Source of the DNA: an uncultured delta proteobacterium
GTDB taxonomy: Bacteria > Desulfobacterota > Desulfuromonadia > Desulfuromonadales > JACZKF01
Reading direction: 5' to 3'
Assembly: GCA_963816395.1 (NCBI GenBank)
Contig: CAWFKQ010000010.1
Location: 28,953 to 92,952, forward strand
Length of the DNA stretch: 64,000 bases
The notes beneath the pieces were generated by a model. The model was not told the origin of the DNA. It ran no database searches and saw only the letters and a program-made list of their open reading frames with translations. The position numbers and the translations under genes are program-made. Below are positions 3,724 through 51,563 of the stretch, piece after piece; the first letter of the stretch is position 1; each line of letters begins with the position of its first letter.

Positions 3724-3821
3724 CGCAAGCTTTCGGGCGGCGCGCGAGCTGTTTCCCGGGAAAAACAAAGCGCCGCGGGCGATGAAAAGACGCGCGGCGC
3801 TCCGAATGAGTTCAGATGGTC

Positions 3822-3910
3822 CCGCCCGCTTCCCTCCGCCGGTATTACCCGGATCAGGTTCCAAGGGTCGTTCCGCCGCAGCGAAACTCTCAGTATAACA
3901 CTCCCCTAGC
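3822..3910 (-). promoter_or_regulatory. TPP (THI-box) riboswitch in the leader of thiED-thiC
   Basis: Reverse strand reads ...GGGGAGUGUUAUACUGAGAGUUUCGCUGCGGCGGAACGACCCUUGGAACCUGAUCCGGGUAAUACCGGCGGAGGGAAGC... This carries the conserved CUGAGA and ACCCUUnGAACCUGAUCnGGnUAAUnCCnGCG..GGGAA blocks. It ends about 100 nt upstream of the thiE ATG. Confidence 0.9.
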
Positions 3911-4178
3911 GGTCTGTGCTGGTTGTGGCTTGCCGGCCTTGCGGCCGGGAGTTCCCCTTTTTAAGGCTATCCGGCTTCTCGCCGGTGCCGGCTTCCGCCG
4001 AAAGGGAAATGCTCTGCGGAAACGCAGAAATCCCCGAAAGGGTAGAAAAAGACTAAAGGATTCGCCCGAGGCTGTCAACTCTATTGTCGGCACTGTCGGG
4101 AAGGTTCTTTACAGCCCCTTTTCGCCGTGGTACAAAATTCTTTTTCCCGCCTCAGCCAACCGACAGGATTTGTTCGCC

Positions 4179-31662: not shown

Positions 31663-33168
31663 ATGAGACTTTCTCAGCTGTTCAAGGATATTCCCCTCCG
31701 TCCTCTGCAGGCGGATTCGGACCCGGAAGTAGCCGGTCTCGCTTATGACTCCCGGCAGGTCGAGCCCGGCGGCCTTTTCTTCGCCCTGCGCGGGGAGAAG
31801 GCCGACGGGCATCAGTTTATCGAGCAGGCCATCCAGCGTGGCGCGGTCGCCGTGGTGATGGAGGAGGAACGACCTTTGCCGCCCGGGGTGGCCGGTTTCC
31901 TGGCCGAAAACGGCCGGCGGGTCATGGCGCTGGCGGCAGCTGCTTTTTACGGCGATCCGACGGCCGACATGACGGTGGTCGGCGTGACCGGCACCAACGG
32001 TAAAACCACCACCACCTACCTGCTCGAAGCGGTTCTGCGCGCGGCCGGCAAACGACCGGCGGTTTTCGGCACCGTCAACTACCGGTTCGGCGAGCGCGTT
32101 CTCCCCTCCCTGCATACCACCCCGGAGTCGGTCGACCTGCTGCGCACGATCGCAGAATTCCGGCGGGCGGGGGCCGATGCCCTGATCATGGAGGCCTCCT
32201 CGCATGCCCTGGAGCAGCACCGGGTGGATGGGGTGCGCTTCGATGCCGCAATCTTTACCAATCTCACCCCCGAGCATCTCGATTACCATCGGGATATGGA
32301 AAGCTACTTCGCCGGCAAGCGTCGCCTGTTCAAACTGGTGGAGGAGACCGGGGGAAAAGCGGTGGTGAACATTGACGATCCTTACGGCGCCCGGTTGGCC
32401 GCCGGGCTGCCGGCGGTGGTCTCCTGCGGCACCTCTCCGGCGGCGATGGTGCGGCCGCTGCGGGTCTCCCTCTCCATGGACGGTATTGCCGGCGAACTGG
32501 CGACGCCGGCCGGCCCATTGCCCTTGCACTCGCGCCTGCTGGGGGATTTTAACCTGCACAATCTGCTCGGTGCCGCCGGTGCCGGTCTGGCTCTCGGCCT
32601 CGACCCGCAGACGATCGCCGCCGGGCTGGCGCAGGCGCCGCAGGTCCCCGGCCGCCTGGAGCGCATCGAGAACGGCCGGGGGGCGCTGGTGCTGGTCGAT
32701 TATGCCCACACCGGCGATGCCCTGGAGAAGGTGCTGAGCACCCTGGCCGCCCTTTCCCCGGGTCGGATAATCACGGTTTTCGGCTGTGGCGGTGACCGCG
32801 ATCGCAGCAAGCGGCCGGTCATGGGGGAGGTCGCCGCTCGCTTCAGTGATCTCGCCCTGATTACTTCCGATAATCCCCGCACCGAGGAGCCGCTGGCTAT
32901 TATTGAAGAGGTGCGGGCCGGCGCCCAACGGGTTCATCCCCTGGCCTGGTCCCGGGAAGAGGCGACGCGGTCGCCCGGTCGCGGCTTTCTTGTCATCCCC
33001 GACCGCCGCGAAGCGATCGCTTTCGCCGTTTCCCTGCTGCAACCCGGGGATCTGCTGCTGGTTGCCGGCAAGGGACATGAAGATTATCAGATCATCGGCC
33101 GTGAACGATTCCATTTCGACGATCGGGAGGAACTGCGCCGCGCCCTGACGCGGCTGGAGAATAGATGA
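31663..33168 (+). CDS. murE: UDP-N-acetylmuramoyl-L-alanyl-D-glutamate--2,6-diaminopimelate ligase
   Basis: GVTGTNGKTTTTYLL and the DNPR motif (TSDNPRTE). ATG at 31663. Confidence 0.95.
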   Translation: MRLSQLFKDIPLRPLQADSDPEVAGLAYDSRQVEPGGLFFALRGEKADGHQFIEQAIQRGAVAVVMEEERPLPPGVAGFLAENGRRVMALAAAAFYGDPTADMTVVGVTGTNGKTTTTYLLEAVLRAAGKRPAVFGTVNYRFGERVLPSLHTTPESVDLLRTIAEFRRAGADALIMEASSHALEQHRVDGVRFDAAIFTNLTPEHLDYHRDMESYFAGKRRLFKLVEETGGKAVVNIDDPYGARLAAGLPAVVSCGTSPAAMVRPLRVSLSMDGIAGELATPAGPLPLHSRLLGDFNLHNLLGAAGAGLALGLDPQTIAAGLAQAPQVPGRLERIENGRGALVLVDYAHTGDALEKVLSTLAALSPGRIITVFGCGGDRDRSKRPVMGEVAARFSDLALITSDNPRTEEPLAIIEEVRAGAQRVHPLAWSREEATRSPGRGFLVIPDRREAIAFAVSLLQPGDLLLVAGKGHEDYQIIGRERFHFDDREELRRALTRLENR

Positions 33169-34559
33169 TGGACCTCGATCTGCAAAAGATCGCCCGGATC
33201 ACTGGCGGCCAACTCCTCCCCGAGGATTCCCGGCTGACTGTCCGCGGCATTTCCACCGACAGCCGCTCCCTGCAGGGGGGCGAACTTTTCATTCCCTTGC
33301 GGGGTGAAAATTTTGACGGTCACGATTTCCTTCTGGCGGCGGTGCGCCGGGGCGCGGCTGCCTGCCTGAGCGAGCAGGTGGTGGCCGGGCTGCCGGTGCC
33401 GGTCATCCGGGTGGCCGATACCCTGCGCGCGGTGGGGGATCTGGCGGCGGCAATACGAAGCGATTTTCCCGGACCGGTGGCGGCGATCACCGGTTCTTCC
33501 GGAAAAACCACTACCAAGGAGATGCTGGCCGGCATTCTGGCGCTAACCGGGCCGGGGCTGAAGACCGAGGGGAATTTTAATAATTTGATTGGCCTGCCGC
33601 ACACCATTTTCCGGTTGCAGCCGCAGCATCGCTGGGCGGTGCTGGAGATGGGGATGAGCGCCCGCGGCGAAATCGCCCGCCTGGCGGAGATCGCTGCTCC
33701 CAGTCTCGGCATCATCACCAATATCGGGCCGGCGCACCTCGAGACGCTGCACGGACTGGACGGGGTGGCGCGGGCCAAGGGAGAGCTGTTCGCGGCCCTG
33801 CCGGCCGGAGGTACGGCGGTAATCAACGGCGATGACCCGCGAGTTGCCGCCATCCCGGTGGCAAACGGCGTCAAGTGCCTGTATTTCGGCAGCGCGGCCG
33901 GTGCTGAAATACGAGCGGAGCAGGTGACGGTCAGCGGCGACGGGATCTCTTTCCTGCTCGTCCTGCCGGCGGCGAGCCGGACGGTGCATCTGGCGGTCAC
34001 TGGCCGCCATAATGTCCAGAACGCCCTGGCTGCTGCGGCTGCCGCCAGTGCCCTGGGGGTGGAAGCGACGCTTATCGCTGAGGGGCTGGAGGCCTTCCGT
34101 CCCGGCCACGGCCGGATGGAATTGGTCCACCTGCCGGACGGCACCTCCGTGCTGGAGGATTTCTATAATGCCAACCCCCTGTCGGTGCGGGCGGCCCTGG
34201 TCGCCCTGGACGAGCTGGGCGGGAGGGGACGGCGCATTGCGGTGCTCGGCGACATGCTGGAACTCGGTGAACAGGCCGCCCGCCTGCATCGGGAGATCGG
34301 TGCCGAAGCCGCCCGCCGGGTAGACTTTCTTCTGCTGCTGGGAGCCATGGCTGAGGAAACTGCTGCCGGCGCCCGGGAGGCGGGGCTGGCAGCCGACCGC
34401 ATCCGTATCGCTGCGACGCACGAGGCGGCGGCCGGCCTCCTCTGCGAATTCCTGCAGGCGGGCGACCGGGTGTTGATCAAGGGTTCGCGGGGGATGAAGA
34501 TGGAAAAGGTCTGCGCCGCCCTGCGGGAGAAGGACTGTCTGGCCGTAGGCCACTGCTAG
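33165..34559 (+). CDS. murF: UDP-N-acetylmuramoyl-tripeptide--D-alanyl-D-alanine ligase
   Basis: ITGSSGKTTTKEML; conserved dcw position. Confidence 0.95.
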   Translation: MMDLDLQKIARITGGQLLPEDSRLTVRGISTDSRSLQGGELFIPLRGENFDGHDFLLAAVRRGAAACLSEQVVAGLPVPVIRVADTLRAVGDLAAAIRSDFPGPVAAITGSSGKTTTKEMLAGILALTGPGLKTEGNFNNLIGLPHTIFRLQPQHRWAVLEMGMSARGEIARLAEIAAPSLGIITNIGPAHLETLHGLDGVARAKGELFAALPAGGTAVINGDDPRVAAIPVANGVKCLYFGSAAGAEIRAEQVTVSGDGISFLLVLPAASRTVHLAVTGRHNVQNALAAAAAASALGVEATLIAEGLEAFRPGHGRMELVHLPDGTSVLEDFYNANPLSVRAALVALDELGGRGRRIAVLGDMLELGEQAARLHREIGAEAARRVDFLLLLGAMAEETAAGAREAGLAADRIRIAATHEAAAGLLCEFLQAGDRVLIKGSRGMKMEKVCAALREKDCLAVGHC

Positions 34560-34611
34560 CAGAGAGTGACTTATCACGCCTGTTTTAGGCGCAATGAATT
34601 GCGCCCCTACG

Positions 34612-34665
34612 AGGTACGTCGTTGACGAAGGATGAGGGCAACGCCGCAGATGGGCGTTTTTCATC
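34612..34665 (-). repeat. 54-bp repeat element, copy A (reverse orientation), in the murF-mraY spacer
   Basis: Exact reverse complement of 50543-50596 (gatgaaaaacgcccatctgcggcgttgccctcatccttcgtcaacgacgtacct). On the + strand it forms AACGCC-gcagatg-GGCGTT followed by TTT (34640-34661). Confidence 0.9.
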
Positions 34666-34683
34666 CGTCTGTTGAGGGAATCG

Positions 34684-35760
34684 ATGCTGTATCACCTGCT
34701 CTATCCACTGCATACCGAATTTTCGGTTCTGTACATTTTCCGGTACATTACCTTCCGCACCATTTACGCCACCATTACGGCGCTGGTAATCTCCTTCATC
34801 CTCGGCCCCTGGCTGATCAACAAGCTCTCCAGCCTGCAGATCGGCCAGAGCATCCGCAAGCTGGGGCCGGAGTCGCACTTCAAGAAAGAGGGGACGCCGA
34901 CCATGGGCGGCACCCTGATCCTGCTGGCGATCGTCCTGCCGACCCTGCTCTGGGCCGACCTCGCCAACATCTACGTCTGGGTGACGCTGCTGGTGACCGT
35001 CGGTTTTGGCGTGGTCGGTTTCGTCGATGATTTCCGCAAGGTGCGCAAAAAGAACAGCGACGGTCTCTCCCCGCGGCAGAAAATGGTGTGGATGCTCCTG
35101 ATCTCCCTGGCGGCCGGGGGCATTCTCTATCTTTATCCCTCATTCCAGACCACTCTCGGCGTCCCCTTCTTCAAGGATCTTCGTCCCGACCTGGGGATCT
35201 TCTACATCCCCTTCGCCATGCTGGTCATCGTCGGCTCCAGTAACGCCGTCAACCTCACCGACGGACTCGATGGGCTGGCGATCGGGCCGATGATCATCGC
35301 TACCGGCACCTACCTCGTGTTCGCCTATCTGGCCGGCAACGCCCGGCTTTCCGAGTACCTGCAGATCAGCAGCGTGCAGGGGGCAGGGGAGCTGTCGGTG
35401 CTCTGCGGCGCCATGGTCGGGGCCGGGCTCGGTTTCCTCTGGTTCAACAGCTACCCGGCGCAGGTATTCATGGGCGATGTGGGGAGCCTCTCGCTCGGCG
35501 GCGCCCTGGGAACCATTGCGGTGATCACCAAGCAGGAGATTGTCTTGATGATCGTCGGCGGCATCTTTGTCCTGGAGGCGCTGTCGGTGATCTTCCAGGT
35601 GACCTCCTTCCGTCTGTACGGCAAGCGGATCTTCCGCATGGCGCCGATCCATCATCATTTCGAACTCAAGGGCTGGCCGGAGCCGAAAATCATCGTCCGT
35701 TTCTGGATCATCAGCATCATTCTGGCGCTGGTGGCCCTGTCGACCCTGAAGTTGCGGTAA
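34684..35760 (+). CDS. mraY: Phospho-N-acetylmuramoyl-pentapeptide transferase
   Basis: [10 protein letters not shown]..., polytopic, with [16 protein letters not shown] at 34684. Confidence 0.95.
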
Positions 35761-35770
35761 GGGCCACATG

Positions 35771-35798
35771 TCAGGTAGCAGGTTTCAGGTGTCAGGAA
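35771..35798. repeat. Four tandem TCAGGTN heptamers in the mraY-murD spacer
   Basis: tcaggta gcaggtt tcaggtg tcaggaa, immediately before the murD ATG. Confidence 0.65.
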
Positions 35799-35803
35799 AT
35801 AAA

Positions 35804-37157
35804 ATGCAGCGTAATTATTCGGGAAAGAAAGTTGTGGTCGTCGGAGCGGGGCGTTCCGGCCTCGCTCTGGCCGCCTATTTCCGTCGCCGCGGGGCCGCCG
35901 TCGTTCTCTCCGACAACCGCGCCGCGGAGCGGCTCGGGCCGCTGGCGGTGCCGCCGGGGGTGATCCTTGACCTGGGCGGGCATACCCCGGCGCACTTCGA
36001 GGCGGCCGACCTGGTGGCGATCAGCCCCGGTGTGCCCCTGGAATCGCCACCGGTGGCGGCAGCGATCGCCCGCGGCGTGCCGGTGCTGGGAGAGGTGGAA
36101 ATCGCTTTCGGGGAACTGACCGCGCCGCTGGCGGCGATCACCGGCACCAACGGCAAATCGACGACCACCATGGTCATGGGGGAAGCGCTGCGCGCCTGGG
36201 GAAAGAACCCCTTCGTCGGCGGCAATCTCGGCATCCCGCTGATCGAGGCGGTGGACGGGGCGTGGGACTGGCTGGTGGCGGAGATCTCCTCCTTCCAGTT
36301 GGAGGCGATCCGCGATTTCCGCCCCGGCTACGCCCTGCTGCTGAACGTCACCGAGGACCACCTCGACCGCTATCCGGACATGGAGGCCTATCTGGCGGCC
36401 AAGCTGCGCATTTTCGAGAATATGACGGAGTCCGGCGTCGCCGTGCTCAATGCCGAGGACCCGCTCGTGGTGGCCGCCACCGCCGGTCTGCGCCCGCGGC
36501 GGGTATTTTTCTCCTCCCGCCGGATGCTGCCGGAGGGGATGGGGGTGGCGGGAGAAACGATCGTCTGGCGCCATGACGGCGTCGAAACCCGATTCCCCAT
36601 CCGCGAACTGAGGCTCAAGGGGCTCCACAACGTGGAGAACGTCATGGCCGCCCTCGTTCCGCCGCTGCTGGCCGGCTGCCCGGCCGGCGACCGCCTGGGG
36701 CGCCGCCTGCGCCTTTGCCGGCCTGCCGCACCGGATGGTGCCGGTGCGGGTGCTGAACGGGGTCACCTGGTACAACGACTCCAAGGGGACCAACGTCGGC
36801 AGCGTGGTGAAGAGCCTCGCCGGCCTGCCGGCGCCGGTGACCCTGATCGCCGGCGGCAAGGACAAAGGGGGAGATTATGCCCCCCTGGCCGGGCTGGTGC
36901 GGGGGAAGGTGAGAAATCTGGTCGTTATCGGCCAGGCGGCCGACCGCCTGCTCGCCGCCCTCGGCGACCTGACCCACACCGTCCGCGCCGATAGCCTGGA
37001 GGAGGCGGTGCGGGTGGCCTGGGAGCTGACCCCGGCGGGCGGGTCGGTACTGCTTTCCCCCGGCTGTTCCAGTTTCGACATGTTTAAGAACTTCGAAGAG
37101 CGCGGGGATCTATTCACCCGGGCGGTGCTCGCCCTGCCCGACAGGATGGCGGTGTAA
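35804..37157 (+). pseudogene. murD: UDP-N-acetylmuramoylalanine--D-glutamate ligase MurD; one frameshift as written
   Basis: Track ORF 35768..36994 gives KKVVVVGAGRSGLA and ITGTNGKSTTTMVMG, through to ...[10 protein letters not shown]. Track ORF 36735..37157 frame continues [37 protein letters not shown]... Shift near 36685. Confidence 0.88.
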
Positions 37158-37161
37158 CGCG

Positions 37162-38268
37162 ATGGAACTGAGGAAGGAATACGATTCGACAATCCTGCTG
37201 CTGGCGGTCGCACTCACCTGCTTCGGTGTCGTCATGGTCTATTCCTCCTCCTCCATCATGGCGGTCAAGCGCCATGCCGATGGCTTTTATTTCCTCAAGC
37301 GCCAGGGGGTGTACGCCCTCGGCGGCTTTCTGCTCATGGCGGCGGCAATGCGCATCGATTACCGCTGCCTGCGCCGGCTGGCCGTTCCCTTTCTGCTGCT
37401 GTGCATCGGCCTGCTGCTGGCGGTGCTGATCCCGGGGATAGGCGCGCACGCCGGCGGCGCTTCGCGCTGGATCCGCCTGGGGATCATCTCCCTGCAGCCA
37501 TCGGAGGTGACCAAGCTCGGTCTGGTTCTCTACATGGCGCATTCGCTGGCCAAGAAACAGGAGAAGATCAAGAGTTTCAAGCTCGGCTTCATCCCTTACA
37601 TGGTGGTCCTGGCGATCCTCCTCTTTCTGCTGCTGCTGCAGCCCGACCTCGGCAGCGCCCTGACCCTGGGGGCGGTGGCCATGGTGATGCTGCTGGTGGC
37701 GGGCACCCGGCTGAGCTACCTCTTCTCGGTAGCGATCCTGGCGGTGCCGTTCCTCTATTTTGCCGTGATGCATGTCGATTACCGGCGAAAACGCATCCTG
37801 GCTTTCCTCAACCCCTGGGAGGATCCGACGAATACCGGATTTCAGATCATCCAGAGCTGGATTGCCTTCGGTACCGGCGGGCTGCTCGGCAATGGTTTGG
37901 GGGAAGGAAAGCAGAAACTCTTCTTTCTGCCCGAGGCACATACGGACTTCATCTTTTCGGTGGTGGGGGAGGAGCTGGGCTTCGCCGGCGTGCTGGTGAT
38001 CAGCACCATGTTCCTGCTTCTGGTCCAGCGAGGCATCCGCGCCTCCCTGACGGCACCGGACGATTTCGGGCGCTACCTGGCCTTTGGCATCTCCCTGCTG
38101 CTCGGCCTGGAGGTTTTCGTCAATCTCGGGGTGGTCATGGGGCTGCTGCCCACCAAAGGGCTGGCCCTGCCTTTTCTTTCCTATGGCGGAACCAGCCTGC
38201 TCACCACTTTGCTGGCGGTGGGAATTCTGCTCAATATTTCCAGTCAGGGTCAGGGAGGAGTCTCATGA
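37162..38268 (+). CDS. ftsW: Cell division glycosyltransferase FtsW (SEDS family)
   Basis: 368 aa, 10-TM SEDS pattern (GASRWIRLG, PEAHTDFIFSVVGEELGF, LPFLSYGGTS). Confidence 0.93.
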   Translation: MELRKEYDSTILLLAVALTCFGVVMVYSSSSIMAVKRHADGFYFLKRQGVYALGGFLLMAAAMRIDYRCLRRLAVPFLLLCIGLLLAVLIPGIGAHAGGASRWIRLGIISLQPSEVTKLGLVLYMAHSLAKKQEKIKSFKLGFIPYMVVLAILLFLLLLQPDLGSALTLGAVAMVMLLVAGTRLSYLFSVAILAVPFLYFAVMHVDYRRKRILAFLNPWEDPTNTGFQIIQSWIAFGTGGLLGNGLGEGKQKLFFLPEAHTDFIFSVVGEELGFAGVLVISTMFLLLVQRGIRASLTAPDDFGRYLAFGISLLLGLEVFVNLGVVMGLLPTKGLALPFLSYGGTSLLTTLLAVGILLNISSQGQGGVS

Positions 38269-39380
38269 GGATGCTTCTGGCCGGAGGCGGTACCGGCGGC
38301 CATCTCTTCCCAGCCGTGGCCCTCGCCCAGCGACTGCTGGCGACGGAGCCCGGCTCCGAGGTGCTCTTTGTCGGTACCAGCCGGGGAATCGAGGCGCGGG
38401 TTCTGCCGGAACTGGGACTGCCGTTGGCGACCATCGATATCTCCGGCTTCGTTGGCAAGGGGGTGAAGGGAAAGGCGGCTCTGGCGCCGCTGCTGTTCCG
38501 CAGCATCTACCAATCCTGGCGGCTTCTCGACCGTTTCCGGCCGCAGGTGGTGGTGGGAGTGGGAGGGTACGCCTCGGCTCCGGTATTGACCGCCGCCCGC
38601 CTCCGGCGCTATCCCTGCCTGATTCACGAACAGAACGCCTGGCCGGGGCTGACCAACCGCCTGCTGGCCCGCTGGGTCGACCGGATCTGTCTCTCTTTCG
38701 CTGAGGCCGACTGCGCCTTTCATCACGGTAGGACGGTATTGACCGGCAATCCCCTGCGCCAGGGGATGGAGGAGTGTCCGCCGGTGCCCGCCGGCGACCC
38801 GCAGTTGCTCGTCTTCGGCGGCAGCCGCGGGGCCCGCGCCATCAACGAGGCGGTGCTCGCCATGCTCCCCCGGCTGGCGGAATTTCGCGGGCGGCTGTCC
38901 ATCCGTCATCAGACTGGCAGCGAGGATCTGGAGCGGGTGCGTGCCGGGTACCGGCAGGCGGGATGGGACGACGGCGGGGTGGTTCCTTTCATCCAGGATA
39001 TGGCGGCGGCCTACGCCGGCGCCCACCTGGTTCTCTGCCGGGCCGGGGCGACCACCATCGCCGAACTGACCGCCTGTGGCCGGCCGGCGGTGCTGGTGCC
39101 TTACCCGCATGCCGCCGGCGATCACCAGACGGCCAACGCCCGCGCCCTGGCGCGGGGGGGGGCGGCCTTGATGCTGCCGCAGCCGGAGATGACCCCCGAA
39201 ACCCTGGCGCGGCTGATCGGCGACCTGCTGCACGATCGGGAACGGCTGCTGGTTATGGCCGGAGCGGCCCACGCCCTGGGCCGCCGCGGGGCAGCCGATC
39301 TGATCCTGCGCGAATGCCGGGCGATCATCAAACCTGAAGGCGATTTTTTTAACGCGGCGAGGCGGGCAACCAGGCATTGA
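38265..39380 (+). CDS. murG: UDP-N-acetylglucosamine--N-acetylmuramyl-(pentapeptide) pyrophosphoryl-undecaprenol N-acetylglucosamine transferase
   Basis: MRMLLAGGGTGGHLFPAVALA... The ATG at 38265 overlaps the ftsW stop (ATGA). The first ~290 codons of track ORF 37401..39380 are an out-of-frame overlap with ftsW. Confidence 0.93.
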   Translation: MRMLLAGGGTGGHLFPAVALAQRLLATEPGSEVLFVGTSRGIEARVLPELGLPLATIDISGFVGKGVKGKAALAPLLFRSIYQSWRLLDRFRPQVVVGVGGYASAPVLTAARLRRYPCLIHEQNAWPGLTNRLLARWVDRICLSFAEADCAFHHGRTVLTGNPLRQGMEECPPVPAGDPQLLVFGGSRGARAINEAVLAMLPRLAEFRGRLSIRHQTGSEDLERVRAGYRQAGWDDGGVVPFIQDMAAAYAGAHLVLCRAGATTIAELTACGRPAVLVPYPHAAGDHQTANARALARGGAALMLPQPEMTPETLARLIGDLLHDRERLLVMAGAAHALGRRGAADLILRECRAIIKPEGDFFNAARRATRH

Positions 39381-39390
39381 AGGCTTCTTG

Positions 39391-39430
39391 ACGCGGAGAC
39401 GCGGAGGCGCAGAGGAAAACAGAAACAGGA
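39391..39430. repeat. Tandem degenerate octamers in the murG-murC spacer
   Basis: acgcggag acgcggag gcgcagag gaaaacag aaacagga. A partial inverted partner (cctctgcgc) lies at 39472-39480, followed by the hairpin ctgcgc-ttctagtga-gcgcag. Confidence 0.55.
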
Positions 39431-39527
39431 GTTTTTTTAACTTAAACCCTAACCAAAGAATTTTTCTCCGTGCCTCTGCGCTTCTAGTGAGCGCAGCGAA
39501 CGGGCGTTTAAAAAGGACCTTGACCTT

Positions 39528-40910
39528 ATGTACGGCAGGATACGGAAAATACATTTCGTCGGCATCGGCGGCATCGGCATGAGCGGCATTGCCGAGGTGC
39601 TGCTGAATCTCGGCTACCAGGTATCCGGCTCCGATCTGCGCGAGTCGGAGATTACTCGCCGGCTGACGGAGTTGGGGGGAGAGATCACCTTCGGCCACCG
39701 GGTGGAGAACGTCGGTAATGCCGACGTGGTGGTGACCTCCACCGCCGTGCGCGCCGGCAATCCCGAGGTGCTGGAAGCGACTCGCCGGCTGATCCCGGTC
39801 ATCCCCAGGGCCGAAATGCTGGCCGAGTTGATGCGCATGAAATACGGCATCGCCGTCGCCGGCACGCACGGCAAGACGACCACCACCAGCATGGTGGCCA
39901 CCATGCTGGTGCATGGCGGTATCGACCCGACGGCGGTTATCGGCGGCCGTCTGGACGCCTTCGGCTCCAATGCCAAACTGGGGCAGGGGAAATTCCTGGT
40001 GGCCGAGGCCGACGAATCGGACGGCTCCTTTCTCAAGCTGTCGCCGACCATCGCCGTGGTCACCAATGTCGACGCCGACCACCTCGACTATTACCAGGAT
40101 CTGGAAGAGATCAAGCGGACCTTCGTCGACTTCATCAACAAGGTCCCTTTCTACGGGGTGGCCGTGCTGTGCCTGGACGATCCGAACATTCAGGCCCTGA
40201 TCCCGCAGGTGAAGAAGCGTTTCGTGACCTATGGCCTGAGCACCCAGGCCGATCTCAGCGCCAGCGAAATCGAGCATCGGGGCGATCGCACCGCTTTTAC
40301 CGTGCACCATCGCGGCCAACATCTCGGCCGCATCTCCTTCCACATGCCGGGGCAGCACAACGTGCTAAATGCCCTGGCGGCGGTCGCCGTCGGCCTCGAA
40401 CTGGAGATTCCTTTCGCGCGGATCGCCGAGGGCTTTCAGGATTTCGGCGGCGTGCAGCGGCGCTTCCAGATCAAGTCGGAGGTGGATGGAATCATGGTGG
40501 TGGACGATTACGGCCATCACCCGGCGGAGATCAAGGCTACCCTGGCGGCGGCCCGCGCCGGCTGGAACCGGCGGGTGGTGGCGGTTTTTCAGCCGCACCG
40601 CTACAGCCGCACCCGGGCACTGTTCAACGAGTTCGTCACCGCCTTTTACCAGGCCGACCATCTGGCGGTGATGGATATCTACCCGGCTGGCGAGGATCCG
40701 ATCGAAGGGGTGGATGCGCGATCCCTGGCCGCGGGGATTGCCGGCCACGGGCACAAGGATACCCATTACGTCGGGGATCGCCAGGCGGCAGTGGCGCATC
40801 TGCTGTCGGTGGTGGCCGAAGGAGATATCGTGATCACCCTGGGCGCCGGCAATGTCTGGCAGGTCGGCGAAGATCTGGCCCGGCGCCGCCGGGAAGAGCA
40901 GGGTGACTGA
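39528..40910 (+). CDS. murC: UDP-N-acetylmuramate--L-alanine ligase
   Basis: [18 protein letters not shown] and [15 protein letters not shown]. Confidence 0.95.
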
Positions 40911-41886
40911 ACGGCTCTTTGACAGTCTGCGCGCGTTTTTCCGGGGCGAGTTAAGGCGGGCGGAGCCGCTCTCCCGGCACACCACCTGGCGGGTCGGCGG
41001 CCCGGCCGACCTGTTCCTGGCCCCGGCCGACCGGGCGGACCTCCAGGCGGTACTGGGGTGGCTGCAGGCGGTGCAGATCCCCTGGTTTTTCCTTGGGGGG
41101 CGGCAGCAATCTGCTGGTCGTGCGACAGCGGATTCCGGGGAGCGGCGATCCACACCGGGCGCCTGCGGCAACTGCGCTTCGGTCCGGACGGGGAGGTGGC
41201 GGTCGGAGGCGGCCTGCCGCTGATGGCGTTGATCCGCGAGACCGCGTCCCGCGGTCTCGCCGGCCTGGAGGGGCTGGGTGGCATTCCGGGCACGCTCGGC
41301 GGTGCCATCGCCATGAATGCCGGGGCCGGGGGACAGGAAATGGCCGGGGTGGTGCGCTCGGCGGTCCTGGCCGGTCCCGACGGGGAGGAGAATTGGGAGG
41401 CCAACCGGCTGGCCTTCGGCTATCGGCAATCGGCGGTCCCTGCCGGATCGGGTTATCGTCGAGGCGCACCTGCGGTTCACGGCGGCCGATCCGGTACTCT
41501 TGCAGACCGAGATTCAGCATCGGGTGGCGTACCGGCGGAGCCAACCATCCGCTACGGCAGCCCGAATGCCGGCTCGGTGTTCAGAAATCCCCCGGGGGAG
41601 GGGGCCTGGAAGCTGATCGAGGCGGCCGGACTCCGGGGGGCGCAAGATCGGCGGGGCGCAGGTCTCGGAGCAGCACGCCAACTTCATCGTCAATGTCGGC
41701 GGCGCCACAGCCGCCGACATCCTGACCCTGATCGACCGCATCCGCGCGGCGGTAAGAAAACAGACCGGTATCGAACTGGTGCCGGAGGTAAGGATTATTT
41801 GGATCAGGCAAGAGGCAAGAGGCTCGGGGCAAGAGGAAGACCCCAAGCCGCAACCTCTAGCCTGTAAACCACGGCACGAGGGATAA
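40903..41886 (+). pseudogene. murB: UDP-N-acetylenolpyruvoylglucosamine reductase MurB; five frameshifts as written
   Basis: GTG 40903 (VTERLFDSL...HTTWRVGGPADLF...FFLGG), then GGSNLLV, then DSGFRGAAIHTG...AFGYRQS, then LPDRVIVEAHLRF...VAYRR, then PNAGSVFRNPPGEGAWKLIEAAGLRG, then KIGGAQVSEQHANFIVN...EVRII. The path alternates between all three frames. Shifts lie near 41098 (G6), 41121, 41435, 41540 and 41638 (G6). The span is divisible by 3. The C-terminus runs on into the heptamer array. Confidence 0.85.
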
Positions 41887-41948
41887 CTCGAGGTTAGAGG
41901 CATTTCGCTTTAACCTCTAGCCTCTTGCCTCTAGCCGCTAGCCGGGTT
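41806..41948. repeat. About 20 heptamer units: AGGCAAG array plus an inverted CCTCTAG/CCTCTTG array in the murB-ddl spacer
   Basis: aggcaag aggcaag aggctcg gggcaag aggaaga (41806-41840); cctctag cctgtaa (41854-41867); gaggtta gaggcat (41890-41903); cctctag cctcttg cctctag ccgctag (41914-41941). gaggcaagaggct and agcctcttgcctc can pair as a long-range stem. Confidence 0.7.
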
Positions 41949-41952
41949 TTTT

Positions 41953-42879
41953 ATGGACCGCAACGAACTGAAAAAAAAGAAGATTGGTGTTCTGCTGGGC
42001 GGGATGTCCGCCGAGCGGGAGGTTTCCCTGCGCACCGGCAAGGCGGTGCTGGCCGCCCTGCAGGAGAGCGGTTACCGGGCCGTCGGTCTCGATGCCGGCC
42101 GCGATCTGGCGGCGCGCCTGGGGGAGGAGGGGGTCGAGGTGGCCTTCATCGCCCTGCACGGCCGCTACGGTGAGGACGGCACGGTGCAGGGGCTGCTGGA
42201 GATCCTCGGGATTCCCTACACCGGCAGCGGCGTGCTGGCTTCCAGCATCGCCATGGACAAGGTGACCACCAAGAAAGTCCTTCTGCACCACGAGCTGCCC
42301 ACCCCGGGCTTCGACGTTTTTCACCGGGGGGAGAGCCGCCATGAACTGCTGGCGCGCTGCCGGCATTTTCCGCTGGTGGTCAAGCCGGCCCGGGAGGGAT
42401 CGACCATCGGCGTTTCCATCGTCCGCACCCCCGAGGAACTTCAGCGGGGACTCGATGCGGCCCTTGAGCACGATGCGCTGGTGCTGATCGAGGATTACAT
42501 CCAGGGGCTGGAAGTAACCGTCGGGGTATTGGATGACCGGTCCCTGCCGATCATCCAGGTGGTGCCTAAAGGAGGTTTTTACGATTTCCAGGCCAAATAT
42601 ACCGCCGGCCAGACCGAGTACATCCTCCCCGCGCCCCTGGATGGCGTTCTCTACGAACGCCTGCAGCAGGCGGCCGTCGCCGCCTGTCGGGCGGTCGGCT
42701 GCGCCGGCGCCTCGCGGGTCGATTTCATGGTGCGGCAGCGCGAATTCTTCTGCCTGGAGATCAATACTATCCCGGGGATGACTGAAACCAGCCTGTTGCC
42801 GAAGGCGGCGAAACATGCAGGCATGTCCTTCGGTGAACTGGCGCAGCGAATCCTGGAAGGGGCGGGACTCAACAAATAG
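41953..42879 (+). CDS. ddl: D-alanine--D-alanine ligase
   Basis: IGVLLGGMSAEREVSLRTG, HGRYGEDGTVQGLLE, ATP-grasp C-terminus. Confidence 0.95.
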   Translation: MDRNELKKKKIGVLLGGMSAEREVSLRTGKAVLAALQESGYRAVGLDAGRDLAARLGEEGVEVAFIALHGRYGEDGTVQGLLEILGIPYTGSGVLASSIAMDKVTTKKVLLHHELPTPGFDVFHRGESRHELLARCRHFPLVVKPAREGSTIGVSIVRTPEELQRGLDAALEHDALVLIEDYIQGLEVTVGVLDDRSLPIIQVVPKGGFYDFQAKYTAGQTEYILPAPLDGVLYERLQQAAVAACRAVGCAGASRVDFMVRQREFFCLEINTIPGMTETSLLPKAAKHAGMSFGELAQRILEGAGLNK

Positions 42880-43036
42880 TCCCGCCCTCCGCTGAGGGCG
42901 CGCCGAAGTTGTGAAATGTAAACTCGAAACGAGATTTCAAGCGTGCGCGATCTGAAAGCTCCCAAAGACAGGCAAGGTCAAAGGGAACCGGCGCCGGAAA
43001 AAGACCTCCCCGCGCGACTGGAAGAAGGTTTTCCGG

Positions 43037-43786
43037 GTGGGCCTGCGGCTGACGGTCACTCTGGCCAGCCTGGGGTTGATCGTCAGCGGCGGCCTGCTGC
43101 TCACCCGGCTGCTTTTCGCTTCCGACTACTTTCGCATCGAGGACGTCCAGGTAGAAAACAATCAGCGAGTGAGTGCAGAGGAAGTGGTGGATCTTTCGGA
43201 AATCGAGCGGGGCAGCAGTATCTTCAACCTCGATCTCCAGGCGATCGGCCACAAGATCGAGGAGAATCCCTGGATCGCCGCCGCCCAAGTCGAGCGGGTT
43301 TTCCCCCGGCAGGTGGTCATACGGCTGACGGAGAGGGTGCCGCGGGCAGTGATCAATCTCGGCTATCTCTATTATGTCGATGCCTCGGGCGAGGTTTTTA
43401 AGATGCTGGAACCAGGCGATAGGCTCGATTATCCGGTGATGACCGGTATCGAACGTAAGTTCCTGCTGGAAAAACCGGCCGAGGCCCGCCGCCTGCTGGC
43501 GGACGCCGTTTCCCTCCTCGGGGAACTGGCCGGACGCCGCCGCTTCACGGTGAAGGACGTTTCGGAACTGCGTTACGACCAGGACGACGGATTCATGCTG
43601 ACCACCATGACCGGCGGCGTGCCGATCCGGCTGGGATTCGGCAATTTCGCCGGCAAGCTGGACCGCCTGGAGAGTATTTATCCGGAGCTGCAGACGCGCC
43701 TGGCGATCCTCAAATACATTGATCTGAATGTGACCGACCGGGTTATCGTCCGGGTCGAAAGCAAATTTGCACCGGGAAACAGTTAA
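43037..43786 (+). CDS. ftsQ: Cell division protein FtsQ (N-terminus uncertain)
   Basis: TM segment plus POTRA/FtsQ domain (FRIEDVQVENNQRVSAEEV...). The same frame is open back to 42956 and encodes a basic tail (KGNRRRKKTSPRDWKKVFR) with no start codon. GTG 42943 lies in another frame, so there may be a further frameshift near 42970 with the true start at 42943. Confidence 0.8.
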   Translation: MGLRLTVTLASLGLIVSGGLLLTRLLFASDYFRIEDVQVENNQRVSAEEVVDLSEIERGSSIFNLDLQAIGHKIEENPWIAAAQVERVFPRQVVIRLTERVPRAVINLGYLYYVDASGEVFKMLEPGDRLDYPVMTGIERKFLLEKPAEARRLLADAVSLLGELAGRRRFTVKDVSELRYDQDDGFMLTTMTGGVPIRLGFGNFAGKLDRLESIYPELQTRLAILKYIDLNVTDRVIVRVESKFAPGNS

Positions 43787-43807
43787 ATATGCAGGAAAGG
43801 GAGGAAG

Positions 43808-45037
43808 ATGGCCAGCAAGAGAGATAACCTGATTGTCGGGCTGGATATCGGTACCACCAAAATCTGCGCCATCGTCGGCAATCTTACCGAGGATGGCCTG
43901 GATATAGTCGGAATCGGTACCAGCCCTTCCAAGGGGCTGCGCAAAGGGGTGGTGATCAACATCGAGGCCACCGTCGGCGCCATCCGCAAAGCCCTGCAGG
44001 AGGCCGAGCTGATGGCCGGCTGTGAGATCAAGTCGGTTTTCGCCGGGATCGCTGGCGGGCACATCAAGGGATTCAATTCCCAGGGGGTGATCGCCATCAA
44101 GAACCGGGAGGTGAACAACGACGACATCCGGCGGGTGATCGATGCCGCCAAGGCGATCGCCATCCCGATGGACCGGGAAGTGATCCATATCCTCCCCCAG
44201 GAATTCATCATCGACGATCAGGACGGCATCAAGGAGCCGCTGGGGATGAGCGGGGTGCGCCTGGAAGCCAAGGTGCATATCGTCACCGGGGCGGTGGCCA
44301 GCGCCCAGAACATCATCAAGAGCTGCAACCGGGCGGAGGTCGACGTGGCCGATATCGTCCTTGAGCAGCTCGCTTCCTCGGAGGCAACCCTGACCCCGGA
44401 CGAGAAGGAACTGGGGGTGGCCCTGATCGACATCGGCGGCGGCACCACCGACCTCGCCATCTATATCGATGGGGCGATCAAACACACCGCCGTTCTTTCC
44501 CTTGGCGGAAATCATCTGACCAACGACATCGCCGTCGGTCTGCGCACGCCAATGGCCGAGGCCGAGAAGATCAAACATGCCTACGGCTGCTGCCTGACCT
44601 CCATGGTCGGCAAGGACGAGACAATCGAGGTCCCCTCGGTCGGCGGCCGCGAGCCGCGCATCCTCTCCCGGCAGCTGTTGGCCGAAATACTGGAACCGCG
44701 GGTCGAGGAGATCTTCACCCTGGTCAACCGGGAGATCGTCAAAAGCGGCTTTGAGGACCTGATCGCCTCCGGAGTGGTGATCACCGGCGGCACCTCGATT
44801 CTGCCTGGGATGCCGGAGCTGGCCGAGCAGATCTTCAACCTGCCGGTGCGCCGGGGGGTGCCGCGGGACATCGGCGGCCTGATCGACGTGGTCAACTCTC
44901 CCGTCTATGCAACCGGCGTGGGGCTGGTCAAGTACGGCAGCCGCAACCTGCAGTCGCGCAATTTCACCATTGGCCAGGAACATATCTTCGACCGGGTGGT
45001 CCGGCGAATGAAGGAATGGTTTGGCGAGTTTTTCTGA
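43808..45037 (+). CDS. ftsA: Cell division protein FtsA
   Basis: Actin-like ATPase: [15 protein letters not shown] and [13 protein letters not shown]. Confidence 0.95.
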
Positions 45038-45095
45038 TTTGTTCACTCGGGACGGGGTGCGGAGACCTCATTCCAAACTGCGATCGGAGGGTACC

Positions 45096-46241
45096 ATGTT
45101 CGAATTCGATGAGAGTATTGATCAAAAGGCGAAAATCAAGGTCATCGGCATCGGCGGCGGCGGCGGCAATGCGGTCAATACGATGATCCAGTCGAACGTC
45201 GAGGGAGTGGAGTTCATCACTGCCAACACCGATGCCCAGGCGCTGAAGAACAACCGCGCGCCGCTGAAGCTGCAGCTCGGTCCCAAGCTGACCAAGGGGT
45301 TGGGCGCCGGCGCCAGCCCGGAGGTTGGCCGGGAGGCTGCACTCGAGGACCGGGCGCGGCTGGCGGAGGTCCTGACCGGCGCCGACATGGTGTTTATCGC
45401 TGCCGGCATGGGGGGCGGCACGGGCACCGGAGCGGCGCCGGTGATCGCCGAGGTGGCCAAGGAGGTCGGTGCGCTGACTGTCGGCGTGGTGACTAAACCC
45501 TTTTCCCGCGAGGGACGGCAGCGCATGAAGAAGGCCGAGGAGGGGGTAGCCGCTCTGCGGGATATGGTCGATTCCCTGATCGTCATCCCGAACGACAGGC
45601 TGCTCGGCCTGGCCGGCAAGAACATGAGTATTGTCGATGCCTTCAAACCGGCGGACGATGTGCTGCGGCAGGCGGTGCAGGGGATTTCCGACCTGATCAC
45701 GACCGAGGGGATGATCAACGTCGACTTCGCCGACGTCAAGGCGATCATGAGCGAGCGCGGCATGGCGATGATGGGCATCGGTCTCGGCGAAGGGGACCGT
45801 CGTGCCACCGCAGCAGCGCAGCAGGCAATCAGCAGCCCTCTGCTGGAGGACATCGACATCTCCGGCGCCCGCGGAGTGCTGGTGAACATCACCGGCTCCA
45901 GCAGCATGACGCTGGAGGACTTCGACGAAGTCTCCCGGGTCATCCACGAGAAGGTGCACGAGGACGCCAATATCATCATTGGCCTGGTGATCAACGAGGA
46001 CATGGGCGAGCGCATCAAGGTGACCGCCATCGCTACCGGTTTTGGCGCCACCTTCGAGAAGGGGAAGCGGGGAGTGGGGGAGTTGAAGACGTTGGCGGCG
46101 GCCCCGTCCGGAAAAGTGGACCGCGATCTGCCGACCTTCATCCGCGAGCGGCAGAAGGAGTCCCCCCGCGCTTTCCGCGCCGCGCTGGGGGAAGAGGAGG
46201 AATACGACATCCCCACCTTCCTGCGCAAGCGCGTCGACTAG
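45096..46241 (+). CDS. ftsZ: Cell division protein FtsZ
   Basis: [17 protein letters not shown] and the [18 protein letters not shown] tubulin signature. ATG at 45096 follows GGAGGG. Confidence 0.97.
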
Positions 46242-46374
46242 CGCCTGCCGGATAAGGGCGGCAGCCGCCCCTGCCGGCCTTTCGGCCGGCGGCCCCGAAT
46301 GCCGGTTCTCCGCCCGGCGAGCGGGGTTGCGGGAGTGATTGCCCCCGAGTGGCCCGTAGTCCCTCCGTTCGCAG

Positions 46375-46403
46375 GGGACCGCCTGGTGCGGTCCCTTTTC
46401 TTT
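46375..46403 (+). terminator. Rho-independent terminator at the end of the dcw cluster
   Basis: gggaccgc-ctggt-gcggtccc followed by ttttcttt, about 130 nt after the ftsZ stop. Several GC hairpins precede it. Confidence 0.75.
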
Positions 46404-46509
46404 AGCGGCATAAACCAGCCTTGAACGAAGAGAGACCCCACACCCTCTTCCCCTTACCCCCCCTTGTCCTGCTAAAATGACCCATGACGAATGATCTGAG
46501 AGGTGAACG

Positions 46510-46752
46510 ATGAAGATCGAGATCCTGGGCGACGAGTGTAAAAAATGCCGGATTCTTTACGACAATGTTCTGCAGGCGGTGGCGGAAAGCGGCTGGCAGG
46601 TGGAGATCGTGCGGACCAATGCCCCCGATATCCTGGCCGGTTATGGCGTCCGCTCTCTCCCCGGGCTGGTAATCGACGGGGTACTGCAGTCTACCGGCAA
46701 GTTCCTGTCGGTTGGCCAGATCAGGGATCTGCTCGAACGGAATTCTTCCTGA
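46510..46752 (+). CDS. Small thioredoxin-fold protein (glutaredoxin-like, CxxC)
   Basis: 80 aa: MKIEILGDECKKCRILYDNV...LPGLVIDG. CKKC active-site pattern near the N-terminus. Confidence 0.7.
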   Translation: MKIEILGDECKKCRILYDNVLQAVAESGWQVEIVRTNAPDILAGYGVRSLPGLVIDGVLQSTGKFLSVGQIRDLLERNSS

Positions 46753-46841
46753 GTTAGCGGACGGGTACTTTCCTTCTTCCCCTTGTGCATAAATCAGGCG
46801 TTCTGCTGAGAGCGCGACAACTTCCCTAAGGCACTGAACCC

Positions 46842-48564: not shown

Positions 48565-48753
48565 TCCATTCCCACCCTGGTTTATCCAAGCCCTTAATAT
48601 TTAAAAAATTTAATAAGATCCTTGCGGCCCGCACATTCGCTGGTAGTGTTGTGTCCTATACTGCTTTGGTGTTCGTCCGCGGATACAAGGGGATTCGGGC
48701 CTTTCCGCGGGCGGGTACCGGGACCATTTCGGTGCATCTGCCAGGAGGACCCG

Positions 48754-50037: not shown

Positions 50038-50071
50038 TTCCCTGTATTTATCATTGATCAGGAGTTGAGAT

Positions 50072-50689
50072 ATGGCGAAAAAAGGCGTGACCGCAACGAT
50101 CATTCTGCTTCTCTCCCTGGCCTTCCTGGCCGCCTGCGCCACCCTGAAGGGAGGGTTCCAGGTGCCGGCGCAACACCCGGAGGAACTCGGTAAGGGCCGG
50201 CCGACCTGCACCGAGTGCCACGATGCGCGCACCGAGGAGTTCAATTACGGGCAGTACGTCCATACTGTTGATTGGATGAATACCCATCGTCAGCAGGCCT
50301 ACCAGGGGGAACAGGTGTGCCGCATGTGCCACCAGACCAGCTTCTGCAACGACTGTCATGCCACCCGGGTGGAGCTCAAACCCTCGGTTCGGAACGAGAC
50401 GGAGAATTATCGCCGCATGCCGCACCGGGGCGATTACCTCACCCGGCACCGGATCGACGGCCGGGTCGATCCGACCTCCTGCTTCCGCTGTCACGGCAAT
50501 CCCAAGGCAGCACGGACCTGCGCCCCCTGCCATCCTTCAGGTGATGAAAAACGCCCATCTGCGGCGTTGCCCTCATCCTTCGTCAACGACGTACCTTCAG
50601 GTACGTCTTACTCCTCAGGATTTCGGGCGCCTTGCATCTGGACATTTTTGCTCAGCCTGAGAGAAGAGAGATTTTCAACAACGTTTTGA
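50072..50689 (+). CDS. Lipoprotein pentahaem c-type cytochrome
   Basis: Lipobox LAFLAAC. Five CXXCH motifs (CTECH, CRMCH, CNDCH, CFRCH, CAPCH). The 49 codons after the last haem site include 18 codons supplied by the 54-bp repeat, so the true C-terminus is uncertain. Confidence 0.8.
   Translation: MAKKGVTATIILLLSLAFLAACATLKGGFQVPAQHPEELGKGRPTCTECHDARTEEFNYGQYVHTVDWMNTHRQQAYQGEQVCRMCHQTSFCNDCHATRVELKPSVRNETENYRRMPHRGDYLTRHRIDGRVDPTSCFRCHGNPKAARTCAPCHPSGDEKRPSAALPSSFVNDVPSGTSYSSGFRAPCIWTFLLSLREERFSTTF
50543..50596 (+). repeat. 54-bp repeat element, copy B (forward orientation), inside the 3' end of the pentahaem cytochrome ORF
   Basis: Identical to the reverse complement of 34612-34665. Followed by the perfect hairpin gacgtacc-ttca-ggtacgtc (50588-50607), whose 5' arm is part of the repeat. 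Confidence 0.9.
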
Positions 50690-50696
50690 GGAGGGA

Positions 50697-51563
50697 ATGA
50701 TGACATCCAGAGTTCCGCTGCTGCTCTGCCTTCTTCTGACGGCACTGATCGCCGGCGGCTGCGCCGACAGTAATTCTGGCGCCCCCGAGGTCGACCAGGC
50801 GCACCCGACCGGCTGGGTCATCGGCCATGCCGCTGAGGCCCGCGACAACCAGACGCGATGCCAGTTCTGCCACGGGGCGGACTTCCGCGGAAACAAGGAG
50901 GCGGTCAGCTGCTTCAGCTGCCACCTGGAAGGGCCGCCGCAGGTAGCCCAATTCCACATCCACCCGATCAGCTGGACCAGCGGCACGACGGTCATCGCCG
51001 CCCACCAGAATTTCCCCAGAAATTTCAGCTGGACCCAGTGCGGCAACGCCGCCTGTCACGGGCCAACGCTGCATGGCGGGATCGCGGGTCCGAGCTGCTT
51101 CCTGGCCGCCTGCCATGCCGGCGGGCCGCCGGCGCCGGCCTTCCACACCAACCTCTTTATCCAGCCGCAGAATCACGGGGCGCTGGCCAAGAATGAGCAG
51201 ATCTTCTGCCGCAACTGCCATGGCCGGCCGCCCTTCTTCTTCGACGGCGGCTATGTCGCCGATCCTGCCATCGGCAACCACCCCCCCGGCAACTGCTCCC
51301 TGGCCTTCTGCCATCCGGCCGCCATGGCGCACCCGACCAACTGGCAGGGGACGGACGACACCGACAGCGACGGCTATCTCGCCACCCACCGCACCATTAT
51401 CCCCTCGGCGGTCCCCGGCGGCTGCGTTCTCTGCCACCAGACCAGTCCCGGCGGCGCGAGCCCTCTGCCCGCGGCGCCGAGCTGCTTCACCGGTCAGTTC
51501 ACCAATGCGGCCGGCAATACCACCGGCTGCCATCCCGGTGGACCATCCATCCTGACTCCCTGA
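50697..51563 (+). CDS. Lipoprotein multihaem c-type cytochrome with CXXCH and CX4CH motifs
   Basis: Lipobox LIAGGC. CQFCH, CFSCH, CRNCH, CVLCH, plus CGNAACH, CFLAACH, CSLAFCH (CX4CH) and one C-X14-CH near the C-terminus. ATG follows GAGGAGGG. Confidence 0.8.
   Translation: MMTSRVPLLLCLLLTALIAGGCADSNSGAPEVDQAHPTGWVIGHAAEARDNQTRCQFCHGADFRGNKEAVSCFSCHLEGPPQVAQFHIHPISWTSGTTVIAAHQNFPRNFSWTQCGNAACHGPTLHGGIAGPSCFLAACHAGGPPAPAFHTNLFIQPQNHGALAKNEQIFCRNCHGRPPFFFDGGYVADPAIGNHPPGNCSLAFCHPAAMAHPTNWQGTDDTDSDGYLATHRTIIPSAVPGGCVLCHQTSPGGASPLPAAPSCFTGQFTNAAGNTTGCHPGGPSILTP

Follow-up and report, generated by a model that had tools for sequence, protein, structure and literature searches.

Two stretches of 54 nt, identical and in opposite orientation, lie about 16 kb apart in a 64,000-nt piece of DNA from an uncultured delta proteobacterium (contig CAWFKQ010000010.1, positions 28,953 to 92,952; this whole piece is called the window here), one in the spacer between murF and mraY of the dcw cluster and the other between two cytochrome c genes. 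The locus raises the question of what such a repeat is, and whether its presence in the dcw cluster bears on the regulation of that operon. Direct comparison confirmed that 34612..34665 (+; copy 1) is the perfect reverse complement of 50543..50596 (copy 2, on the − strand), as an earlier note on this DNA had stated, and each half of the 54-mer matches only these two sites in the window with up to three mismatches allowed; matches in shuffles were 0/100. On the evidence presented below the two tracts are assigned, with a probability of roughly 0.78, to a MITE family (for miniature inverted-repeat transposable element), with units of ~160 bp that usually sit on stop codons and have a target like that of the IS5 group of insertion sequences (IS). 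The guess made in the earlier note, that the repeat is a structured element of the repetitive extragenic palindrome (REP) or MITE kind, is in this respect borne out: the family is multi-copy, with terminal inverted repeats, target duplications, presence/absence polymorphism and a covarying foldback.

A scan of one genome per species with the pattern GGATGAGGGCAACGCC-N7-GGCGTTTTT (a 25-base core) found 78 loci in 27 assemblies, mostly from Desulfuromonadales and other Thermodesulfobacteriota and several to a genome, so the repeat is present at far more than the two sites from which it was recognized. Carriers include Trichloromonas, Desulfuromonas, Geothermobacter hydrogeniphilus and many metagenome-assembled genomes (MAGs) labeled delta proteobacterium or Thermodesulfobacteriota, one of which (CAVPDE01) has about 10 or more exact-core copies; in 70 of the 78 loci there is a single copy per 8 kb. 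The exact 54-mer itself is present in another species (locus L026). It is thus no isolated duplication, an outcome that the earlier note had allowed for, and because of that second occurrence the 54-nt identity of the window copies reflects family-wide conservation of that half of the element and not a recent local duplication. Alignment of the loci shows a common unit much longer than 54 nt, with a core of 123–125 nt whose consensus, read in the direction of the flanking genes, is CAGGCTGATGAAAAACGCCCATCTGCGGCGTTGCCCTCATCC..TCGTCG..GCGACGTACC-loop-GGTACGCCTC..CTCCTC..GGATTTCGGGCGCCTTGCATCTGGGCATTTTTGATCAGCCTG. A covariance model (R1) built from 54 copies finds exactly two sites in the window, copy 1 and copy 2, and 6 additional copies without the exact core in the fetched loci (~590 kb), which suggests a copy number of roughly tens per genome.

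The complete unit of ~160 bp is made up of the imperfect foldback of 123 nt, ~20 nt of spacer and a second copy of the terminal repeat, the tail amounting to ~37 nt in all. Its outer ends are 15-nt inverted repeats, CAGGYTGCTGAAAAA ... TTTTTCAGCAWCCTG, the distal one of which lies ~20 nt past the foldback and matches at 11–14 of 15 positions in ~18 copies. Perfect 4-bp direct repeats are found outside these ends in six copies, CTAG (L021, L041), TTAG (L059, L067), CTAA (L045) and ATAG (L005), against a chance expectation of ~0.07 among the 18 copies with good repeats; in two others (L070, L037) a 4-bp duplication fits after a 1-nt shift. All six perfect duplications are NTAR, five of them fit YTAR (the exception being ATAG), and NTAR stands just outside the stop-codon-proximal ('A') end in more than half of the copies. 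A 4-bp YTAR target duplication is the signature of IS5 (PMC5009759); by this motif the target is like that of the IS5 group. The unit is shorter than 300 bp, as expected of a MITE, and non-coding: inspection of the alignments revealed no conserved start codon or reading frame across copies, and a small open reading frame (ORF) or type I toxin was ruled out, as candidate ATGs vary (ATG/ACG, ATG/CTG) and indels break the frames.

Both sites in the window are empty in close relatives. Three loci with MraY 92–94% identical to that of the window (L079, L080, L081) lack the insertion between murF and mraY, the murF stop overlapping, abutting or lying 8 nt before the mraY start, and in two others (L082, L083) a cytochrome gene of 156–159 aa ends 0–16 nt before the next gene, with no element between them. 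In one of the former (L081, 601–1782) murF is called at 393 aa with a 218-nt gap to mraY, and murF sequence continues in the gap; the short murF is probably a frameshift or an assembly error.

Placement of the copies with respect to genes is precise. On the strand opposite the one that bears T5, the element edge coincides with the end of a long ORF in 25 of 78 loci, and in ~36 the two are no more than 4 nt apart; TAG, TAA and TGA all serve as stops. With a coding-likeness filter applied, 24 copies have a stop against the A end alone, 6 against the other end alone and 8 (between convergent genes) against both, an orientation bias of 4:1. The flanking genes are co-directional for about 60% of copies and convergent for ~40%, in a classification that is noisy and that misclassified copy 2 of the window. 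The neighbors are diverse, comprising 75 upstream and 60 downstream housekeeping Pfam families, and a Pfam scan of 105 neighboring genes (52 upstream, 53 downstream) detected no transposase, REP-associated tyrosine transposase (RAYT) or Y1 transposase among them. A mechanism that would account for these features is that a trans-acting IS5-family transposase moved the elements and that insertions landed on stop codons because, in these GC-rich and tightly packed genomes, TAG and TAA stops would be the commonest tolerated YTAR sites; the duplicated TAR would then keep the upstream ORF closed. Most simply, the stop codon would itself be the target tetranucleotide, and its duplicate would close the ORF.

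Copy 2 is a full-length member of the family. R1 aligns to it over model positions 1–125 (134.4 bits, E=9.5e-29), and its 123-nt foldback core occupies 50537..50659 (+) in the canonical orientation, its A end placed where the upstream gene ends. The apical hairpin, GACGTACC-TTCA-GGTACGTC (50588..50607, +), covaries across the family (helix 5), and half of it lies in the 54-mer. A 3' tail of ~27 nt follows (50660..50686, +), which is absent from the empty sites of L082 and L083 and in which the distal inverted repeat is degenerate (ATTTTCAACAACGTT, 50671–50685, 9 of 15 positions matching). CATCC(T) precedes the foldback, and the tail is followed by the ribosome-binding site of the next gene, which encodes a second cytochrome c lipoprotein (50697..51563, +). 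The upstream ORF, for a multiheme cytochrome c lipoprotein (50072..50689, +), reads through the element; its orthologues of 156–159 aa place the natural end near 50542. The consensus start of the family, CAGGCTGATG, has a TGA in the frame of this ORF, and copy 2 lacks the C (CAGG-TGATG); because this loss of 1 nt removes the in-frame TGA, the ORF runs through copy 2 and gains ~46 codons, ending at 50689, with 7 nt left before the next gene. The C may truly have been deleted, or its absence may be an error of assembly. The earlier description of both copies as lying directly 3' of a coding region is too simple for copy 2, where the called ORF 50072–50689 extends across the repeat.

At copy 1, between murF (33165..34559, +; an ORF whose orthologues have Mur ligase Pfam families) and mraY (34684..35760, +), the whole spacer of 124 nt (34560..34683) is a lineage-specific insertion made up of a REP and a MITE fragment. 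The R1 hit at this site (34566–34671, −) scores 26.8 bits and aligns well at model positions 1–55 only, corresponding to ~60 nt of the A end (34612..34671, +); the remainder of the foldback is missing. The fragment stands in the rarer orientation, so that the + strand here is the 'E' direction of the element, antisense to the usual gene direction. Immediately to its left is a GTAG-type REP, GTAGGGGCGCAATTCATTGCGCCT (34587..34610, −), a GTAG head with a G+C-rich palindrome that is unrelated to the 54-mer family; it is unique in the window and fits the head-plus-palindrome definition of a REP, and its unit recurs in two metagenome contigs, in one case as a doublet in inverted orientation. The earlier note gave each copy of the 54-mer a perfect flanking hairpin of its own with a TTCA loop, but these are not covarying versions of one feature: that of copy 2 is the apical stem-loop of the element and that of copy 1 is the unrelated REP, which on the + strand reads GGCGCAA-TGAA-TTGCGCC with a TGAA loop, TTCA appearing on the other strand. 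An alternative in which copy 1 is an old full-length copy with one half gene-converted was dropped, given that its left half is a GTAG-type REP and that the 54-mer occurs in another species. Copy 1 is instead a ~60-nt remnant of a MITE end fused to an unrelated GTAG-type REP. Outside the window, GTAG-headed REP hairpins, of the form GTAGGGGCG-palindrome-CGCCCC, were observed at L084 1898–1950, L085 2391–2415, L030 334–384 and L031 75–125 (the latter two being Desulfuromonadales loci), and those in L084 and L030 form inverted doublets resembling REPINs.

The hairpin that drew attention to this spacer is present as described, AACGCC (34640–45)-GCAGATG-GGCGTT (34653–58) with a T run at 34657–34661, 80 nt past the murF stop (34557–59) and ~20 nt ahead of the mraY ATG (34684). 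As a terminator it is marginal. The upper stem has a predicted energy of −8.1 kcal/mol, two T of the T5 lie within that stem, and in the full local fold the T run is sequestered within a longer hairpin, GGATGA..AACGCC-GCAGATG-GGCGTT..TCATCC (34630..34666, +; −19.6 kcal/mol). With a G+C-rich stem of at least 5 bp, a loop of 3–8 nt and, within the next 8 nt, 5 or more T as its requirements, a simple scan for intrinsic terminators returned 0 sites at either window copy. The spacer lacks the long hairpin of the family, and its folding z-scores are −2.3 and −3.0.

The foldback of the family as a whole is strongly supported. In 62 aligned copies 95.7% of cells are paired and both sides change in 23 of 44 pairs, values reached by 0 of 500 shuffles, with slid controls at 34–43%. 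The outer stem covaries cleanly (GGCTGATC/GATCAGCC, GGTTGCTC/GAGCAACC, GGTTACTC/GAGTAACC, GGCCGATC/GATCGGCC). A unit of ~34 nt is present in inverted orientation in the two arms, which are ~70% identical, and the right arm forms a local hairpin by itself. There is a pronounced strand asymmetry as well: in 54 of 54 copies the better fold is that of the strand antisense to the flanking genes (mean −66.2 versus −53.9 kcal/mol), with z-scores of −7.4 to −10.1 compared with −4.1 to −7.1 for the gene strand and 166 versus 46 wobble positions. Both arms keep a conserved CAGATG, from which a tandem G.A/A.G pair arises on the antisense strand only, and in ~70% of copies the long hairpin is closed by a U.G pair on the antisense strand versus a C.A mismatch on the sense strand. 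By inspection, a U5 directly follows the long hairpin on either strand, making it terminator-like both ways.

Orthologous copies in different species are 91–98% identical at positions outside the search pattern, compared with 61–81% at third codon positions of the adjacent genes, and because the copies change more slowly than synonymous sites this comparison of sequences points to constraint on individual copies. Homogenization by gene conversion, or concerted evolution, is not favored as the source of this conservation, because orthologues (0.91–0.97) are on average more alike than paralogues of the same genome (means of 0.81–0.93), though not in every comparison: in 2 of 8 the closest single paralogue is at least as similar as the orthologue. 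The strand asymmetry and the slow change of orthologues exceed what a passive MITE needs. From these features we infer a transcript-level role for the copies, and co-option is possible; the unit looks like an asymmetric bidirectional terminator or stabilizer, which would also account for the rarity inside operons of the orientation with the strong side in the sense direction. After insertion, copies would be kept under constraint as transcribed intercistronic or 3' hairpins, which may serve as RNA stabilizers, processing sites or leaky terminators that are stronger against antisense transcription. A more specific proposal, which we put forward tentatively and consider doubtful as it stands, is that of a domesticated MITE, its copies held by long purifying selection with the antisense-strand foldback as a specific functional module; the conserved tandem G.A pairs, the conserved U.G pair and the strong hairpin plus U5 are on that strand. 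Such a module might act as an oriented insulator or terminator against antisense transcription while letting sense transcription pass, or might be a binding platform for a protein. Were this so, the murF–mraY copy would be a rare case in which the 'blocking' side faces the sense direction of an essential dcw operon.

Several points weigh against the assignment to a transposable element. Every locus was picked by the exact 25-base core, a sampling bias. Duplications are visible in just 6–8 copies and recognizable at neither window copy, and in the Desulfuromonas-type subfamily, to which the window belongs, the distal repeat is degenerate (9–10 of 15 positions). No autonomous IS with matching ends was found in ~600 kb of fetched loci or, by blastn, in PLSDB plasmids, which is the chief weakness of the assignment; the search of all fetched loci for inverted end pairs 0.6–3 kb apart yielded only separate MITE copies or chance matches, the candidate in L078 enclosing an ABC ATPase. 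Finally, transposition of the DDE type does not explain why the foldback, with its mismatches and loops, is conserved beyond synonymous sites, nor does it account for the better folding of the antisense strand in all 54 copies.

These last two observations are what might be expected if the family were a functional structured RNA, either a cis-acting element of 3' untranslated or intercistronic regions or a small RNA from the antisense strand, with its repeats and duplications incidental. The strong covariation, the orthologous copies that are slower than synonymous sites and on average not homogenized with paralogues, the tandem G.A/A.G pair confined to the more stable strand, and the discrete extra hairpins at fixed internal positions of ~10 copies are all consistent with such an RNA, as is the annotation of a probable sister family as 'predicted short RNA elements' by Aklujkar et al. 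2009. We nevertheless consider it unlikely, since perfect 4-bp duplications and 15-nt inverted ends indicate transposition and since the insertions are lineage-specific and the neighboring genes functionally unrelated. Scans detected no sigma-70-like promoter on either strand at either window copy, inspection by eye of the conserved tail revealed nothing convincing in the way of −35/−10 or sigma-54 boxes, no conserved ORF was seen by inspection, and Rfam 15 has no family for the copies at the gathering threshold and none on copy 2 even at E<=10, the sole hit in the window being a thiamine pyrophosphate (TPP) riboswitch elsewhere. An independent small-RNA gene was accordingly set aside, and the suggestion of a small-RNA element in the earlier note finds neither promoter nor Rfam support at these copies. 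The same strand asymmetry would suit recognition of a single-stranded DNA hairpin by a RAYT (a Y1 HUH transposase), were the element a REPIN-like doublet of inverted REP-type units maintained by such an enzyme; the similarity of the two arms, the local hairpin of the right arm, the long vertical persistence at orthologous sites and the presence of genuine GTAG-type REPs in these genomes, one of them fused to copy 1, are in keeping with that idea. It is, however, quite improbable, as a GTAG-like head is missing from the 54-mer family, REP/RAYT mobility does not involve YTAR duplications or distal inverted repeats, and Y1 transposase is absent from the 105 neighboring genes scanned.

That the 54-mer is a terminator or attenuator of the dcw operon, resembling the 50.5-kb site by local duplication or gene conversion, is very improbable. 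The sense-strand hairpin with T5 does lie 20 nt upstream of mraY, in the orientation that corresponds to the stronger terminator-like direction of the full element, but the 54-mer and its core occur in many other genomes, relatives have no real murF–mraY spacer, and the terminator scan is negative, with the modest upper stem and paired T run described above. The murF–mraY fragment would be at most a weak attenuator, and the exact repeat and hairpin in the dcw cluster probably have little regulatory consequence. An integron-type attC site following a gene cassette could also present as a ~120-nt imperfect palindrome directly after stops, in fixed orientation and with the better-folding strand antisense to the ORF; this reading is effectively refuted by the lack both of arrays (70 of 78 loci have a single copy per 8 kb) and, on inspection, of R boxes of the form RYYYAAC/GTTRRRY, the ends instead reading GAAAAAC and (G/A)TTTTTG, and it is at odds with neighbors that are syntenic housekeeping genes and with the 4-bp target duplications. 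The MITE assignment is thus retained, and the element is of an ordinary kind, a bacterial MITE, that is unusually well conserved, with a precise stop-codon habit and signs of long-term constraint.

[quoted passage not shown] Both ERIC and the present element are ~125-nt imperfect palindromes conserved across genera in tens of copies, with size variants produced by internal indels; unlike ERIC, the element has 4-bp NTAR (mostly YTAR) duplications, bears an additional tail that brings the terminal repeat to three copies, is placed exactly on stop codons and inhabits a different phylum, and no kinship in sequence is expected. ERIC is reported to affect mRNA fate according to its orientation (reviewed in PMC10969869), and by analogy it is the closest functional counterpart. 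With the IS5 group the element shares the 4-bp YTAR duplication (in 5 of 6 perfect cases) and terminal inverted repeats of ~15 nt, whereas it lacks a transposase gene, and neither the fetched loci nor plasmid records yielded a parent IS with matching ends. SPRITE and QMITE2 are small repeats that are terminator-like or found mainly in the 3' untranslated regions of ORFs, and their truncated copies resemble REPs (PMC10969869); the habit is shared, while sequences and hosts are unrelated and the terminator-like hairpin of the element is marginal by simple scan. A MITE is also known from a related deltaproteobacterial lineage, Chunjie of Geobacter uraniireducens, which inserted into an operon without destroying it and is 178–235 bp long and A+T-rich, with 21-bp inverted repeats and 9-bp duplications (PMC3184786); its base composition and duplication length led to its rejection as the same family.

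A probable nearer relative is the Gmet_R10xx family of 'predicted short RNA elements' (Aklujkar et al. 2009, PMC2700814), which was also noted in G. sulfurreducens (GSU0160.1), G. uraniireducens and Desulfotalea. Its members are 108–115 nt long, lie in operon-internal intergenic regions and form a long foldback with a central GCGTAsC...GsTACGC hairpin (GCGTAGC..GCTACGC) and the same series of mismatches (1x1, A:U tract, C.A, G+C block, ATCT opposite ATCT), and in 22 of 24 of them the strand opposite to the listed one folds better. The central palindrome is GRCGTAGCGCTGCTACGCC, and one copy of the present element (L072) has GGCGTAGCAGCGCTACGCC. Similarity at the level of sequence profile is weak (nhmmer E 0.012–0.08 against 5.4 kb), the outer stem has its A and T tracts exchanged, and neither duplications nor terminal repeats are described for Gmet_R10xx, which is a probable sister family. 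A literature text search found no paper containing the 16-mer of the element, and PMC2700814 alone was found to mention GSU0160.1 or Gmet_R1005; this unnamed family in the 2009 Geobacter genome papers is the sole earlier trace found.

The exact repeat is explained in this way as a module of a whole family, which removes a false lead on regulation of the dcw operon. The family, which is without an Rfam entry, now has boundaries, terminal repeats, a target motif, a covariance model and a consensus, and its annotation in Desulfuromonadales and Geobacterales would avert mis-called ORF extensions such as the 46-codon cytochrome tail as well as spurious small-RNA predictions. Stop-codon precision, the 4:1 orientation bias, constraint and strand asymmetry together would make it a tractable test of the co-option of MITEs as transcript-level punctuation.

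Variation within the family includes ~10 long copies with extra discrete hairpins at a few fixed internal points; long variants of 142–196 nt are those in L016, L018, L019, L021, L022, L040, L045, L061, L070, L073 and L078. In L019 and L027 the apical hairpin is replaced by CCCGCAG...CTGCGGG. At one orthologous site the full 123-nt element of L053 (246–368) corresponds in a different species to a 59-nt mini-version (L046, 6384–6444) that retains the outer stem and the AACGCC/GGCGTT hairpin only, and L017, L060 and L077 have comparable half-elements whose start is GGATGAGGGC. Typical copies are also present on two contigs binned as Chloroflexota, L039 (JADFVC01) and L049 (VGNW01), reflecting either mis-binned Desulfuromonadales or horizontal transfer.

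As inverted repeats the two 54-nt copies bracket 15.9 kb of the window (34612–50596), from mraY through the rest of the dcw cluster, and homologous recombination between them could in principle invert this segment. Elsewhere in the window, a direct-repeat family (D1; 31967–32014, 33469–33516 and 36120–36167) represents the nucleotide-binding motif region of paralogous Mur ligase genes and is not mobile, and the TPP riboswitch (RF00059), the only Rfam hit, lies at 3814–3917 (−) and is full length, with a score of 73.3 bits.

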